58,689 nucleotides of DNA from the NCBI GenBank assembly GCA_964394435.1, contig CAYMXN010000001.1:109739-168427 (forward strand), read 5' to 3'. Shown here piece after piece: positions 12,315-15,430 of this stretch (positions are counted from its first letter, which is position 1; each line of letters begins with the position of its first letter). Source of the stretch: an uncultured Candidatus Saccharibacteria bacterium (lineage in GTDB: Bacteria; Patescibacteriota; Minisyncoccia; UBA6257; 1-14-0-10-44-23). The notes under the pieces were generated by a model that worked only from the letters and a program-made list of their open reading frames with translations, searched no databases and was not told the origin of the DNA. A program made the translations under genes and the position numbers.

Positions 12315-13415
12315 ATGCGCGTTGCTTTAGTTCATGACTATTTAAATCAATTTGGTGGAGCGGAGCGGGTTTTGCTTGCGCTGATGGAGCTGTTTCCAAA
12401 TGCGCCAATTTATACGCTTTTGTATGACAAAGAAAAGACGCATGGACTGTTTGAGGGGCGAAGGGTGATTACGAGTTTTTTAGATAATCCGATTACACGG
12501 AAGCATCACCGGCTGTTTATCCCGTTTATGCCTTTAGCTATTAATCGTATGAATCTTGGTAGTGAGTTTGATTTGATTATTTCTGATACCGCGGGCTTTG
12601 CAAAAGGTATCTCATGCGATCAGACGAAAACAAAACATATCAGCTATATTCATACGCCACTGAGATACGCGTGGGAGACGGATGAGTATTTTTCGCACAG
12701 TCTCAAAACAAAAATATTTAACGCGATTTTTAAACCGGCGTTTGCGTACGTGCGGAGGTTTGATTATCAAGTGGCGCAAAAGCCCGACATACTTCTTTCG
12801 AATTCGCAGTTTATCGCCGAAAAAGTGAGGCGGTACTATGGTCGCAATTCAGATGTTTTGTATCCGCCCGTAGATACGAGCGTTTTTTCTCCAGATGAGC
12901 AGATTAAGCGAGGTGAGTATTACTTGGCGGTTGGCCGAATGTTGCATTATAAGCGTTTTGATTTGATTATTGAGGCGTTTAAAATACTTGGATTGCCGTT
13001 AGTTGTTGCCGGTGCTGGGCCAAAAGAAGAAGAGCTTAGGGAGCTCGCCCAAGGTGCTGGCAATATTACATTTTTGCCATTTCAGAAAACAAATGAGGAG
13101 ATGCGAAAGTTATATTGTGGGGCGAAGGCGGTGATTTTTTCACATACTGAAGATTTTGGGTTGGTGCTAGCGGAGGCGCAAGCGTGTGGAGCGCCGATTA
13201 TCGCGTATAACGTGGGAGGTGCGCGAGAGATTGTGTGTGATGAGCGTGCTGGCGTGTTGTTTGATAAACAGAGTGTTGCTGGGCTTGTCGAAGCTGTAAC
13301 TATATTTGAGCAAAAGAAATTTGATCGAGGTTATATCGCGCAGTTGGCGCAGCGGTTTAGTAAGGAGCGATTTGTGGCGGGGATACAACGTATCGTTAAA
13401 GAATTATGTAAATAA
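12315..13415 (+). CDS. Glycosyltransferase family 4 (GT-B)
   Basis: E-x7-E region EDFGLVLAEAQACGAPII and a typical GT4 N-terminus. Confidence 0.85.
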   Translation: MRVALVHDYLNQFGGAERVLLALMELFPNAPIYTLLYDKEKTHGLFEGRRVITSFLDNPITRKHHRLFIPFMPLAINRMNLGSEFDLIISDTAGFAKGISCDQTKTKHISYIHTPLRYAWETDEYFSHSLKTKIFNAIFKPAFAYVRRFDYQVAQKPDILLSNSQFIAEKVRRYYGRNSDVLYPPVDTSVFSPDEQIKRGEYYLAVGRMLHYKRFDLIIEAFKILGLPLVVAGAGPKEEELRELAQGAGNITFLPFQKTNEEMRKLYCGAKAVIFSHTEDFGLVLAEAQACGAPIIAYNVGGAREIVCDERAGVLFDKQSVAGLVEAVTIFEQKKFDRGYIAQLAQRFSKERFVAGIQRIVKELCK

Positions 13416-13457
13416 AAGACCCGCGCTGCATCCGTGTGGATGACTTACGCGCGGGTT
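13414..13457 (-). terminator. Terminator for the minus-strand lipoprotein cassette
   Basis: acccgcgc...gcgcgggt stem with a nested catcc/ggatg hairpin. The A-run on + gives a T-run on the minus strand. Confidence 0.5.
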
Positions 13458-13477
13458 GCGGCCACTAAGTAGTGGTA

Positions 13478-13828
13478 CTACTTGGTGGCGGGGACTGCGA
13501 ACCAGGTGGTTTGCGGTATGGAGTTTTTCCCGTAGCTGGTGACCTTCAGCTCCTGGACCTTCGTTCCGACGGGGAGTTCGGTGGTGGCGAGCAGGGTGTC
13601 CTGCTTCTCGCTGCCACTCCTCCGGACCTGTACCTTGTAGAGGTCGTGTCCGAGCGGCTCGGACTTGACGACCTCCCCCGTCCAGTCGGACGGGGAGACC
13701 TTCGTTCCGTCGTAGATCGTCCTCTCCATCGTCTGGTCGGTCACGGCGGTTTCGCCGTTGCCGCACCCGGCGAGGGTGGCCACCACCAGGACGAGGAGGA
13801 GGATGGAGGGAATGCTGAAACGGTTCAT
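13478..13828 (-). CDS. Small lipoprotein (GC-rich cassette)
   Basis: Signal peptide with a lipobox (LLLVLVVATLAGC). The composition is strongly GC-rich, an AAGGGG SD is present, and a consensus promoter lies upstream. Confidence 0.6.
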   Translation of the reverse strand: MNRFSIPSILLLVLVVATLAGCGNGETAVTDQTMERTIYDGTKVSPSDWTGEVVKSEPLGHDLYKVQVRRSGSEKQDTLLATTELPVGTKVQELKVTSYGKNSIPQTTWFAVPATK

Positions 13829-13876
13829 CTGACCCCTTATCTCTCCGGGTTGACCGGAGCAAATGTTGACTTAGTC

Positions 13877-13905
13877 ATTATAGCATATAAGAGTATATTT
13901 GTCAA
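13877..13905 (-). promoter_or_regulatory. Consensus promoter TTGACA-17-TATAAT (minus strand)
   Basis: The reverse complement of tgtcaa (13900-13905) and attata (13877-13882), with a hand-counted 17-nt spacer. Confidence 0.65.
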
Positions 13906-13960
13906 TATTTAGAGTAAGGGACTGGTGATTGAGTTTTTGAATAAGCCGGAATAATAGGCA

Positions 13961-13989
13961 TTGACAGGATTGGTATAGTGTGCTATAAT
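13961..13989 (+). promoter_or_regulatory. Consensus promoter TTGACA-17-TATAAT (plus strand)
   Basis: ttgaca at 13961-13966 and tataat at 13984-13989. Confidence 0.65.
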
Positions 13990-13995
13990 GTATTT

Positions 13996-14197
13996 ACCCT
14001 GGAGGATCCGTCATGAACGGTCCGTAAGGCAAGCTCCTGGCTGTGGGGAACGGTGCGCCTTTTGCGTTGATTACGAGCTCGTTGGGGCTCGCGCGAAGTC
14101 CAAAAGACTCGCCCTCGCAAATACCTGCAGCCGGGAGCAACCCCCTCTTCCAACCCCACCTTGTGCTATATGCGCTCGGTGGGGTCTTCTTTTTTTG
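13996..14197 (+). ncRNA. Candidate ~200-nt structured small RNA, class unknown
   Basis: A perfect promoter lies upstream and a ccccacc...ggtgggg plus T-run terminator lies at 14154-14197. A long-range 11-bp stem pairs gctcctggctg (14031-14041) with cagccgggagc (14128-14138). No convincing ORF is present. Confidence 0.4.
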
Positions 14198-14242
14198 TGC
14201 GGGCTTGCTAAATCTCTAAAATCAGGTATCATAGCTGTATTC

Positions 14243-14627
14243 CAGAAGACCCCATCTTCGGAATATCTTGTTCCGCGTTGCAGGTCGTTTGCGGCCACTG
14301 CTAGGCGTAGGGTGTGAGGCAGAAGCTCGTGCTTCGACTCGCAGCCTGCAACAACGCAGGGGGTGCAAACAGTCGCAACCCATCGGGATCGGAATAATTC
14401 TCATAATCTCCTTGTCGGAACGTCCTCGAAGTACATAGAGTACTCCTTGCGGCGTTCCTCCGCGAGCTTAGAAGAATTATTCCTGATCGCGGTTAAAGCT
14501 ATTCCGAAGATGAGGTCAAGCCTAAGCGCCACGAGGGCCCTGGAGCGTTAGTCAGCACCTTTGGTGCATATCGGGCGTAAATCAATAGCTTTTTGGCTTT
14601 TATTTACGCTCCGAAAGGAGTTTTTTA
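14243..14627 (+). ncRNA. Candidate ~385-nt structured RNA or rpsB-tsf leader, class unknown
   Basis: Several exact long-range stems: gttgcagg (14277-14284)/cctgcaac (14345-14352), ggaataattct (14391-14401)/agaattattcc (14472-14482), and ggaacg/cgttcc nested inside. It ends in gcgtaaat/atttacgc and ctcc-gaaa-ggag plus T-run hairpins just before rpsB. The start coordinate is a guess based on a weak TTGCTA-16-TATCAT. Confidence 0.35.
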
Positions 14628-14656
14628 TTTATTAATAAATCATTAATTATAATTGT

Positions 14657-15430
14657 ATGGACGAAGTTAAAAACGATAAGTCAGGCATGCCAGTTGAGCC
14701 AGTCGCCCCAGAGCGTACGGCTGATACGGCTGTATTAGAAGAGATGACGAAGGCCGGTATTTTGTTCGGTCGTCGCCGTATGTGGGGTAACCCAAAGATG
14801 AAAAAGTACGTGTACACGACGCGTAATGGTTTTTCGATCTTTGACCTTACTCAAACGCTTGATGCGATTGAGAAGGCTTGTGAGTTTCTAAAGACAATTG
14901 GTAAAAACGGTCAGCAGGTTCTTTTTGTCGGCACGACGCCAGCCAGTCAGGTGCTCGCCCAGGAGCTTGGCACGAAATTTGGTTTTCCATTTGTTACCGA
15001 GCGTTGGCTTGGTGGTACGCTTACTAACTACGACACGATTTCTGCCCGCTTACAGTTTTATCTCCGCTTAAAGGCGGACCATGCGGCTGGTCGTCTTGAT
15101 AAGTACACGAAAAAGGAGCGTACAGAGATGATGAAGCAACTCGAACGCTTGACCCGTTTCTTTGGTGGTCTTGAGCGTATGATTACGCTGCCTGCGGCAG
15201 TTGTTGTTCTCGGTGCTGATGCGCACAAGATCGCGATTGCTGAAGCGAGCCGTGCGAAGATTCCTGTCGTTGCGATTGCTAACACTAACGCCGACCCAAC
15301 AACGATTAAGTATGTAATTCCGGCTAATGACAACAACCAGTTGAGTTTGCGCTGGATTAGCGAGAAACTTTCAGCAGCTTTAGTCTCGGGTATCAACGAG
15401 CGAGGTGCGGTTGCTCCAATTAAGAAGTAG
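14657..15430 (+). CDS. rpsB: 30S ribosomal protein S2
   Basis: Typical S2 core (AGILFGRRRMWGNPKMKKYVYTTRNGFSIFDL). It has an N-terminal extension, so the true start could be the internal ATG at 14687. Confidence 0.93.
   Translation: MDEVKNDKSGMPVEPVAPERTADTAVLEEMTKAGILFGRRRMWGNPKMKKYVYTTRNGFSIFDLTQTLDAIEKACEFLKTIGKNGQQVLFVGTTPASQVLAQELGTKFGFPFVTERWLGGTLTNYDTISARLQFYLRLKADHAAGRLDKYTKKERTEMMKQLERLTRFFGGLERMITLPAAVVVLGADAHKIAIAEASRAKIPVVAIANTNADPTTIKYVIPANDNNQLSLRWISEKLSAALVSGINERGAVAPIKK

Follow-up and report, generated by a model that had tools for sequence, protein, structure and literature searches.

A probable non-autonomous mobile element splits the rpsB-tsf 5′ leader, a plausible S2 attenuator, in a Candidatus Saccharibacteria bacterium

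Introduction

Immediately upstream of rpsB-tsf, in a 58,689-nt stretch of DNA from an uncultured Candidatus Saccharibacteria bacterium (the whole stretch is called the window here), lies a densely base-paired region of about 400 nt. A first-pass annotation proposed that it could be an S2-responsive autoregulatory leader, which would be much larger than the known rpsB leaders, or an independent large ncRNA. The question is what this region is. The analysis described below showed that the 400-nt structured region is a composite, with a 274-bp mobile repeat lying within a shorter, conserved rpsB leader. Very probably the rpsB-tsf 5′ leader was split, about 7 nt past its predicted start, by a non-autonomous mobile element, and the native leader is a plausible S2 attenuator.

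Results

Layout and folding of the region upstream of rpsB

The minimum free energy (MFE) of the 450-nt region was -173.7 kcal/mol, compared with -127.3 ± 6.4 for shuffled sequences (z = -7.26), and none of 100 shuffles was as good. The sequence contains every pairing listed in the first-pass annotation, displaced by no more than 1-2 nt from the positions given there. These include ggaataattct at 14391-14401 with agaattattcc at 14473-83, the nested ggaacg/cgttcc and agtac/gtact, gcgtaaat at 14575-82 with atttacgc at 14602-09, and ctcc-gaaa-ggag at 14609-20 followed by T6 at 14621-26; the rpsB ATG at 14657, which has no SD, was also correctly assigned. Two pairings required reinterpretation. 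The complementarity of gttgcagg (14277-84) to cctgcaac (14345-52) exists, but the family alignment showed that the partner of GUUGC (14277-81) in the conserved structure is GCAAC at 14375-79. The bulged hairpin at about 14239-68 can also form but is not one unit, as it spans the left junction of the insertion, joining host leader to element terminus, and it competes with the terminal stem of the element, which is much stronger. The features of the locus are collected in Table 1.

Table 1. Coordinates of features in and around the structured region upstream of rpsB, in positions of the window.
Feature	Positions	Strand	Basis or remarks
rpsB promoter TTGCTA-16-TATCAT	14205..14232	+	Promoter scan
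Native rpsB leader, 5′ end	14233..14245	+	UUCCAG 14240-45 is the 5′ strand of helix L1
274-bp insertion, copy of the MITE-like repeat	14246..14519	.	Site empty in two close relatives; multicopy
Element terminal stem M1, 5′ strand	14248..14277	+	Partner 14488-14517; ends in conserved CGCG
Element left domain M2	14277..14379	+	Branched hairpin closed by GUUGC...GCAAC
Element right domain M3	14373..14496	+	GAUC...GAUC hairpin, plus the small central CCC-nnn-GGG hairpin
Element terminal stem M1, 3′ strand	14488..14517	+	Partner 14248-14277
Leader hairpin L2 and 3′ strand of L1	14520..14545	+	Stem GCC(U)/(G)GGC; loop CGCCACGAG 14527-35; CUGGAG 14540-45
Small linker hairpin GCACC-UUU-GGUGC	14555..14567	+	Leader linker, variable among genera
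Putative pseudoknot 3′ strand AUCGGGCG	14570..14577	+	Partner is the L2 loop; alternatively base of extended hairpin A
Leader hairpin A GCGUAAAU/AUUUACGC	14575..14609	+	Extended form UCGGGCG/CGCUCCGA is the putative antiterminator
Leader hairpin B CUCC-GAAA-GGAG + U6, terminator-like	14609..14626	+	Terminator scan
rpsB (ribosomal protein S2)	14657..15430	+	PF00318 homologues; no SD; AU-rich spacer 14627-56

Covariance-model scanning against Rfam gave nothing at the gathering threshold over the whole window and nothing credible at E ≤ 10 over 13700-14800, so that no known RNA family matches the region. RNase P RNA and tmRNA were rejected as its identity since both lie elsewhere in the genome. 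No SRP RNA or 6S RNA was found in the genome at all, and neither model matched the region even at E ≤ 10.

Empty sites at the rpsB locus and elsewhere

In a relative of the same genus (G001), positions 13978-14200 are conserved at 79% and positions 14520-14660 at 91%, and the relative reads ccag-ttcg-cctaagcg at the site of the window's 274 nt. An 834-nt contig from a relative that is about 90% identical has 14245 joined to 14520 with TTC between. The unusual size of the supposed leader is therefore not a property of the leader, because an inserted multicopy repeat, absent from the locus in these two close relatives, makes up about 274 of the 400 nt. The proposal of an independent large ncRNA is not supported either, because the segment belongs to the rpsB transcription unit and begins about 7 nt past the predicted start.

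Occupied and empty sites were compared in four cases in all. An element copy in G008 corresponds to an empty site in G005, and in G063 an empty paralogous site exists alongside 272-nt copies that are 99.6% and 98.9% identical. These near-identical copies, together with the empty sites, point to recent activity of the element. At the two well-resolved empty sites, 2-3 nt were replaced rather than duplicated. When 74 ends were examined, TA was the commonest flanking dinucleotide (18 ends), a few copies having TA at both ends, and neither a clear target-site duplication nor a flank consensus was found.

Distribution and boundaries of the repeat family

The repeat is about 272 nt long, and most full copies measure 270-274 nt. 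BLAST identified 15 copies in genus g5. A covariance model (R1), to which the right domain M3 of the copy in the window scored 121.9 bits (E = 1.8e-30), detected the element in 10 of the 11 other genomes of the taxonomic family, with 1-11 copies per genome, and in 35 of 151 genomes of the order, compared with 0 of 150 genomes sampled elsewhere in the phylum. Within the order, families f1, f12, f24, f26 and f29 carry it, and many families gave 0 of 7. Several copies sit at contig ends.

The copy in the window begins with GACCCCATC at 14248 and finishes with GATGAGGTC at 14517, with AA beside each terminus. The termini are conserved in the family as (A)GAACCCATCTC...GAGATGGGTTC(T), bounds that can also be written AGAACCCATCTC...GAGATGGGTTCT, and the outer 11-13 nt, (A)GAACCCATCTC, are conserved throughout the order. 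At the edge of the element the information content falls from about 1.1 bits to less than 0.2 bits. Deletion derivatives of 52 and 83 nt were found, and a solo terminus in G142 proved to be a truncated copy.

A coding role was considered for the 62-aa ORF at 14363-14551. However, the frame is stopped or frameshifted in 12 of 13 homologous copies, and the coding role was rejected. The element had no match in Rfam. The genes next to its copies are functionally unrelated (among them typA, murB, hpf, a PBP, mreC and a solute-binding protein), and those between adjoining copies are housekeeping genes. Interpretation of the element as a riboswitch or cis-regulatory RNA is not supported, given these unrelated neighbours and its occurrence in both orientations. 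Some copies lie directly after promoters; a -10-like hexamer was present near 20 of 122 element ends, the control sample being too small to show a preference.

Secondary structure and strand symmetry of the element

Every copy has a terminal stem of about 28 bp (24-30 bp), with conserved outer ends and a covarying inner part. It encloses two internal hairpins, the left being approximately the reverse complement of the right; the hairpin loops are purine-rich on the left and pyrimidine-rich on the right. Compensatory changes were found in 57 of 85 pairs, compared with 36.7 ± 3.1 in shuffled alignments, and none of 500 shuffles reached 57. Furthermore, 90.9% of cells are paired, a value that dropped to about 40% when the partners were slid. 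The M2 domain corresponds by homology to the left hairpin in copies of the palindromic type and comprises consensus helices 4-7 with 30 pairs, 25 of them compensatory; in M3, 20 of the 38 pairs of helix 9 are compensatory. The internal loops of M3 (UUGUCG, GUCCUCGAAGU / ACUCCUUGCGG) are invariant. The helices are conserved in relatives, but in paralogous copies elsewhere and not at orthologous rpsB loci.

A strand-specific RNA signal was sought and rejected, since every measure was symmetric. Compared with its own reverse complement, the family consensus shows 78.7% identity, only 22 of the 61 copies have the better MFE on the sense strand, and alifold gave energies of -76.3 and -75.6 for the two strands. 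Watson-Crick pairs occupy 89% of the cells in the stems, where GU (29) and AC (19) are about equally frequent, without a GU excess. The GC content of the element is about 50%; it is not AT-rich.

Mode of mobility

[quoted passage not shown] It is small (the usual limit is about 500 bp) and non-coding, with a broken ORF frame, it has terminal inverted repeats with conserved ends, and its dispersed copies show insertion polymorphism. A related autonomous IS with the same ends was not found, as no pair of conserved termini recovered in the terminus searches encloses an ORF.

Four Pfam families were tried as transposase partners (Y1_Tnp, DDE_3, rve and DDE_Tnp_1). Neither Y1_Tnp nor DDE_3 co-occurs with the element across the order; PF01797 (Y1_Tnp, HUH) is present in 0 of 7 genomes of family f1 and 1 of 7 of family f24, both of which carry the element. 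In the five genomes richest in copies, rve and DDE_Tnp_1 do not track it, and both are absent from the two richest. An origin as REP/BIME sequences with a RAYT, or as a PATE derived from IS200/IS605, is not supported, given the lack of Y1 co-occurrence and the long terminal inverted repeats. BLAST against phage and plasmid collections revealed no sequence similarity to the element, and of five motif matches in viral contigs none was confirmed by the covariance model.

Known bacterial MITEs provide a close comparison. The Correia/NEMIS, ERIC/IRU and RUP elements and QMITE2 of Coxiella are likewise small, non-coding, intergenic and multicopy with terminal inverted repeats. Bacterial MITEs share the presence/absence polymorphism and the internal-deletion derivatives, and their transcripts fold into very stable stem-loops, as those of the element would. 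Correia elements can also insert in 5′ UTRs, as the element does here (PMC10969869, PMC3184786). The element differs from bacterial MITEs in that no related IS or transposase was detected among the four Pfam families and there is no clear target duplication. In addition, the whole element is quasi-palindromic rather than the ends alone, and its hairpins, followed across several families of the order, combine invariant loops with abundant compensatory changes, in contrast to the plain decay of typical MITE cores. For a selfish MITE, invariant loops and retention throughout the order are uncommon, a hint that some function is under selection.

Alternative explanations

It is unlikely, although worth weighing, that the 272-nt element is mainly a structured RNA module useful to the host, for instance an RNase III processing or stabilising domain or a cis-regulator, acting in any transcript that carries it, rather than a selfish transposon. 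Palindromy over the whole length would let such a module work in either orientation. The invariant internal loops between strongly covarying stems and the retention of the element across several families of the order are consistent with this explanation, as is the placement of the copies. Many fill the entire intergenic gap or abut gene starts, in one copy the 3′ arm of the terminal stem covers the ATG of an ECF-sigma-like ORF, and 11 of the 15 asymmetric, window-type copies are oriented like the downstream gene, a bias that is not significant. Moreover, RNase III cleavage of MITE stems has been documented for Correia elements (PMC10969869). However, the absence of a GU-over-AC excess and of a folding strand preference argues against an RNA module, both orientations relative to the neighbours are common (27 same-same and 16 opposite-opposite), the neighbouring genes have no function in common, and the sharp termini, deletion derivatives and presence/absence polymorphism are traits of a transposon.

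The element might instead move or be recognised as single-stranded DNA, with a structure-specific enzyme acting on its hairpins as happens with IS200/IS605 ends, REPs with RAYTs or integron attC sites, a reading that we judge decidedly unlikely. Such recognition would explain Watson-Crick covariation that lacks an RNA signature. The almost purely Watson-Crick stems, with GU close to AC, and the equal folding of both strands agree with this, and as the left hairpin complements the right, each strand presents the same pair of structures. The DDE_3, rve and DDE_Tnp_1 searches yielded no DDE transposase, and there is no clear target duplication. Nevertheless, HUH genes of the Y1_Tnp type are nearly absent from f1 and f24, no candidate enzyme was identified among the families searched (which included Y1_Tnp), IS200/605 ends and REPs do not have long terminal inverted repeats, and 272 nt is far larger than REP or attC units.

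That the element is an invertible DNA switch (inverton) with its terminal inverted repeats as recombination sites is very improbable. Similar flanks in G063 do hold the element in both orientations (L084 vs. L085 and L087 vs. L088), inverted repeats form its bounds, and a position directly after a promoter, as in some copies, would suit a switch. However, the element is so near to its own reverse complement that inversion changes little, no association with an invertase was seen, and the inverted repeats differ from copy to copy in their inner parts. Only one form appears in the source metagenome contig, a weak argument as it comes from contigs.

Finally, a single functional RNA extending over 14207-14656, whether a large S2-responsive leader or an independent large ncRNA, would account for the extreme stability (z = -7.3), the position directly upstream of rpsB and the lack of a matching RNA family, but is scarcely credible when the central 274 nt are missing at the locus in two close relatives with leaders otherwise 91% identical, adjoin unrelated genes elsewhere, and have neither promoter nor terminator of their own within the rpsB transcription unit.

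The native rpsB leader

With a MITE-like insertion as the preferred reading, the native leader consists of 14233-14245 plus 14520-14627 and is conserved in 9 genomes of 4 genera (g1, g2, g5 and g6). The idea of an S2-responsive leader thus survives in part: there is a conserved, structured rpsB 5′ leader with a hairpin and a U-run, but it is only about 150 nt long. In seven relatives (G001, G002, G005, G008, G009, G010 and G011) the leader start, UAUUCC, follows the -10 box, and the -35/-10 pair precedes it by the same distance. The four genera share the promoter, UAUUCC, a CG(C/U)C(AC/UU)GAG loop, AUCG(A)GGCG, a hairpin, a GC hairpin and the U-run. Genera g3 and g4 lack the motif upstream of rpsB, as do the 18 other families examined within the order. 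A pattern scan of metagenomes for additional leaders yielded only chance matches, in high-GC contigs. Five uninterrupted leaders gave no Rfam match at E ≤ 1.

The alignment comprises only 9 sequences from about 5 independent lineages, within which the L2 stem covaries across genera (GCCU/GGGC, AGGUCU/GGGCCU, GGCUU/GAGCC, AACCC/GGGUU, AUCC/GGAU and ACCC/GGGU). RNAalifold chose the pairing of the L2 loop with AUCGGGCG as the long-range helix, and this pseudoknot shows compensatory changes, CGUC:GACG in G002 and CGCCUUGA:UCGAGGCG in G009/G010. In the MFE folds of the five uninterrupted leaders, the 5′ strand pairs with a CUGGAG-type sequence; L1 and L2 form in all five, the antiterminator in 4 and the terminator in 1. 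Single-sequence z-scores are modest, from -1.0 to -4.5. The terminator scan called a terminator-like site at 14608-27. Hairpin B is only 4-5 bp here, and in other genera a GC-rich hairpin of 5-7 bp with a U-run occupies the same place. The leader is therefore predicted to have the hairpin and U-run of an attenuator together with a mutually exclusive antiterminator.

A switching model can be drawn from these features. Helix L1 and hairpin L2 would form in the leader, and the L2 loop would pair with AUCGGGCG in a pseudoknot. Alternatively, AUCGGGCG would extend hairpin A by pairing with CGCUCC, which otherwise is the 5′ arm of terminator B. A factor, most likely free S2, may stabilise the pseudoknot, releasing CGCUCC so that terminator B can fold and halt transcription ahead of rpsB. 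In the absence of the factor, hairpin A would form in its extended version and transcription would read through into rpsB. In the interrupted leader, the ends of the element would pair together, making the element an extruded side domain between L1 and L2 in the RNA. The insertion is presumably tolerated, and the leader still folds, because the two ends of the element pair with each other. On this model, the native leader is plausibly an S2-responsive attenuator and probably tunes S2 production, although in principle its ligand could be a small molecule rather than S2.

A gamma-proteobacterial S2 operator in the rpsB-tsf 5′ UTR was reportedly described by Aseev et al. in 2008. Like the leader, that operator is a structured 5′ UTR of rpsB-tsf conserved in a narrow clade only, and its structure lies upstream of the ribosome-binding site without including it. 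The leader differs in that its pseudoknot and antiterminator/terminator arrangement suggests transcription attenuation, whereas the E. coli S2 operator works at the level of translation rather than termination, with S1 helping in the repression (PMC10931766). No Rfam model matched the leader at E ≤ 10 in the window or at E ≤ 1 in the five uninterrupted leaders. In the L20/L10 leaders of Firmicutes and in pseudoknot riboswitches, the 3′ strand of the sensor is shared with an antiterminator that competes with a terminator, as predicted for this leader; however, the leader belongs to a different sequence family without an Rfam match.

Discussion

As this locus indicates, a "giant leader" of great stability in a tiny CPR genome can be a mosaic, part mobile repeat and part real regulator, which matters for annotation, and Rfam-style scans will miss leaders split by an insertion. 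The literature search found no paper on MITEs or on palindromic or structured repeat families in Saccharibacteria and, as far as that search shows, this is the first repeat family of such a kind found for Saccharibacteria. For genomes of about 0.7 Mb, as many as 11 copies in one genome is a notable load, and the copies also cause assembly breaks at contig ends.

The combination of conserved termini, palindromy over the whole length, invariant loops and no detectable transposase makes the family a useful case for studying mobility and persistence in reduced genomes. A speculative interpretation, to which we attach little credence, is that the element is a new kind of structure-dependent mobile or domesticated CPR module whose hairpins are under selection and whose partner enzyme belongs to none of the usual transposase families. 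With its self-closing fold, it could then live in regulatory RNAs, such as an undescribed S2-sensing attenuator. To our knowledge, almost no RNA regulators are known in the phylum, in which the native leader offers a concrete candidate for feedback by a ribosomal protein through attenuation.

Empty sites reveal an insertion upstream of rpsB

The rpsB gene, followed by tsf, lies in a 746-kb assembly of Candidatus Saccharibacteria (G000; 98.9% complete) from a bioreactor metagenome. The 450 nt in question fold at -173.7 kcal/mol compared with -127.3 ± 6.4 kcal/mol for shuffles (z = -7.26), and each of the pairings named in the first-pass annotation was found at its position. No Rfam family was matched in the window at gathering thresholds, nor in 13700-14800 at E ≤ 10.

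A DNA search of relatives showed that a genome of the same genus (G001) keeps 13978-14200 at 79% and 14520-14660 at 91%, but not the stretch between. The middle part matches at 2-8 places per genome in four genomes of a different genus. After its rpsB promoter, G001 reads agctgtattccag-ttcg-cctaagcgcc, where the window has 274 nt between ...ttccag and gcctaagcg. As independent evidence, in an 834-nt contig of a ~90%-identical relative from a wastewater RNA library, 14245 is joined to 14520 with only TTC between. Both are without the 274 nt, and the site is therefore empty in two close relatives. The leader pieces on either side of the insertion are intact in the window and 91% identical to those of G001.

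Coordinates of features in the window and in loci extracted from related genomes (L)
Feature	Sequence	Positions	Strand
152-aa ORF	window	13404-13862	
Second perfect sigma-70-type promoter, TTGACA-17-TATAAT	window	13877-13905	-
Intergenic stretch upstream of rpsB	window	13913-14656	
Separate ~195-nt unit	window	13961-14190	+
Promoter of this unit, perfect extended TTGACA-17-TG-TATAAT	window	13961-13989	
Small RNA	window	13996-14190	
Hairpin plus T-run of this unit	window	ends near 14188	
-10 box of rpsB promoter	window	ends at 14232	
Closing helix, 5' strand (UUCCAG)	window	14240-14245	
Inserted element	window	14246-14519	
62-aa ORF	window	14363-14551	
Sensor hairpin	window	14520-14539	
rpsB	window	14657-15430	
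Extra ~450 nt between small RNA and rpsB promoter	L011 (G001)	1800-2010	
Two full repeat copies in tandem	L034 (G010:C21)	1186-1625	
Element upstream of ECF-sigma-like ORF	L031/L018 (G005)	~1620-1660	
Element upstream of ECF-sigma-like ORF	L023 (G008)		
Second repeat flanking the element	L085 (G063)	1278-1373, 1648-1721	
Second repeat flanking the element	L089 (G063)	1414-1582	
Miniature repeat derivative	L131	300-352	
Miniature repeat derivative	L132	275-360	

Structure and distribution of the repeat family

The window copy was aligned with 15 others. The repeat unit of ~270 nt is closed by a long stem and contains the conserved blocks CGCGUUGC, GCAACC-C...GGGAUC, UUGUCGG, GUCCUCGAAGU, ACUCCUUGCGGCG, CUUCGYGAGCU and GAUCGCGG. 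RNAalifold found compensatory changes in 57 of 85 pairs; shuffles gave 36.7 ± 3.1 pairs changed on both sides, and none of 500 reached 57. Paired cells amounted to 90.9%, compared with 75.3% in shuffles and ~40% with the partners slid, and the covariation score was 0.48 as against 0.19 in shuffles.

Copies were counted with R1, a covariance model built on the right-hand hairpin. One copy was found in the window's own genome; of the family's 11 other genomes, 10 have 1-11 copies each. In the order, 35 of 151 genomes were positive, family by family (7/7, 5/6 and 5/6 vs. many 0/7), while none was positive among 150 other genomes sampled from the phylum. Several copies are located at contig ends.

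Most of the structure belongs to a mobile palindromic repeat, and the proposal of an independent large ncRNA upstream of rpsB is unsupported. Nor is the 62-aa ORF a plausible real protein: of 13 homologous copies, 12 interrupt it with a stop or a frameshift.

Evidence of mobility

When the terminal stem was walked outward, the length was 270-274 nt in most copies. The termini conserved across the order are (A)GAACCCATCTCAA...TTGAGATGGGTTC(T), and those of the window copy are GACCCCATCTT...AAGATGAGGTC. Information content across copies is ~1.1 bits/position within the element; beyond its ends it is <0.2 bits, and the flanks show no target consensus. Derivatives shortened by deletion to 52 and 83 nt keep the termini; the 52-nt miniature is a hairpin of the two termini plus CGCG, and the 83-nt miniature has a short internal hairpin.

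The relative G063 has 272-nt copies with identities of 99.6% and 98.9%, an empty paralogous site (GGCTT-TA-AGTCTCC vs. occupied GGCTT-C[element]C-AGTCTCC) and the element in either orientation between similar flanks. Several of its copies are flanked by a second repeat (≥170 nt), which contains a terminator-like hairpin and is also present without the element, so that the two repeats are nested. In G008, one copy lies immediately 3' of a perfect TTGACA-17-TATAAT promoter, and the site after this promoter is empty in G005.

The genes on either side of the copies are ordinary housekeeping ones (typA, murB, hpf, a PBP, mreC and a solute-binding protein), and orientation was same-same in 27 cases, opposite-opposite in 16, divergent in 8 and convergent in 6. 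The tandem copies in G010 lie ~315 nt apart and share one orientation. In G005 and G008, the 3' arm of the terminal stem covers the ATG and first codons of the ECF-sigma-like ORF (MTEGLTDE...).

Strand symmetry and class of the element

Throughout most of the order, the whole length of the element is a quasi-palindrome. R1 matches on the minus strand in the left half and on the plus strand in the right half, these matches overlapping at the central CCC-nnnn-GGG hairpin. A consensus built from 43 copies matches its reverse complement at 78.7% identity. Both arms of the right hairpin carry pyrimidine-rich loops, with purine-rich complements in the left hairpin. In the subtype of the window copy, which is also that of genus g5, the left domain is diverged and branched. 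Just 22 of 61 copies fold better as the sense strand, the strands being equal overall, with alifold energies of -76.3 and -75.6 kcal/mol. Among pairs that both strands are predicted to form, GU shows no excess over AC (29 GU vs. 19 AC, compared with 858 Watson-Crick cells). Such symmetry does not point to a strand-specific RNA; it agrees with selection on DNA hairpins, or on RNA transcribed in either orientation.

The occurrence of Y1_Tnp and DDE_3 does not follow the element, rve and DDE_Tnp_1 were not found in the two element-richest genomes, and none of the terminus pairs has an ORF inside it. By size, TIR, copy number and polymorphism the element resembles a MITE, and a parent IS was not found. 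It is classed as MITE-like because neither a partner enzyme nor ORF-enclosing termini were found and target duplication is unproven. Its internal conservation is unusual for this class. The stems of Correia elements are cut by RNase III (PMC10969869), and the long stem of this element might be too.

The native rpsB leader

Regions upstream of rpsB were taken from 11 other genomes of the family, and nine sequences were included in the leader alignment. A conserved leader is present in 8 of the 11 (G001, G002, G005, G006 and G008-G011; genera g1, g2, g5 and g6). Preceded by a conserved -35/-10 pair, it consists of UAUUCC, a short hairpin whose loop carries CG(C/U)C(AC/UU)GAG, a strand pairing back to UAUUCC, a variable linker, AUCG(A)G(G/A)CG, a hairpin, and a GC-rich hairpin then U-run 30-120 nt upstream of the start codon. 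The leader hairpin stem covaries (GCCU/GGGC, AGGUCU/GGGCCU, GGCUU/GAGCC, AACCC/GGGUU, AUCC/GGAU and ACCC/GGGU). The downstream AUCGGGCG pairs with the hairpin loop, and exactly this helix was chosen by RNAalifold on the MAFFT alignment. Compensatory changes in the pseudoknot occur in G002 (CGUC:GACG) and in G009/G010 (CGCCUUGA:UCGAGGCG vs. CGCC-A-CGA:UCG-GGCG).

When five uninterrupted leaders were folded independently, the closing helix and hairpin appeared in all five MFE structures. In four, the 3' half is an extended hairpin in which UCGGGCG is paired with CGCUCCGA, using up the pseudoknot strand and the terminator 5' arm together; the remaining leader adopts the terminator form in its MFE structure. 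The UCGGGCG pairing excludes both pseudoknot and terminator, and the predicted architecture is therefore one of sensor (pseudoknot) vs. antiterminator vs. terminator.

The uninterrupted leaders have no match in Rfam, the motif was found upstream of rpsB neither in genera g3 and g4 nor in 18 other families examined in the order, and a metagenome scan for more leaders gave chance matches only. Many motif-less rpsB upstream regions in the order have a simple hairpin plus U-run instead; in loci L141, L142, L144, L150, L153 and L160, a short hairpin and U-rich run lie 15-40 nt before an SD-less rpsB start.

Judged from its sequence, the region without the insertion is a genuine rpsB leader. The suggestion of a 400-nt S2-responsive leader is supported in part, in that a conserved leader exists; the leader is small, however, and the striking structure is mostly the mobile palindromic repeat. 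S2 autogenously controls rpsB-tsf in gamma-proteobacteria (PMC10931766), and by analogy the ligand would most likely be S2. Control in the gamma-proteobacterial system is translational, whereas in the Saccharibacteria leader it looks transcriptional.

A neighboring small RNA and the core RNAs

The separate ~195-nt unit just upstream of the leader region has a structured body (z = -4.4); G001, of the same genus, keeps it at 79%, and a third relative's contig contains it as well. It has no Rfam match and looks like a small RNA gene of unknown kind. Its GGUCC-GUAA-GGCAAGC resembles the SRP helix 8 motif; the SRP model gave no match even at E ≤ 10. Bacterial SRP RNA (RF00169) went undetected in G000 and in all 20 Saccharimonadales relatives searched, neither RF01854 nor 6S RNA (RF00013) was detected in G000, and RNase P RNA scored 86 bits, the gathering threshold being 100 bits. 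The clade's core RNAs seem to have diverged beyond the reach of current models.

The minus-strand promoter faces the 152-aa ORF and forms a divergent pair with the small-RNA promoter. The extra stretch in G001, which the window is without, includes a ~70-aa ORF on the opposite strand and is a second indel at the locus within one genus.

Possible accommodation of the insertion

Because of the position of the -10 box, transcription is predicted to start near 14239. The element begins between the closing-helix 5' strand and the sensor hairpin. Its ends form a ~28 bp stem, so that within the transcript it would be extruded as a side domain and both leader pieces would be rejoined. Such self-closing may be the reason that an insertion is tolerated before an essential gene.
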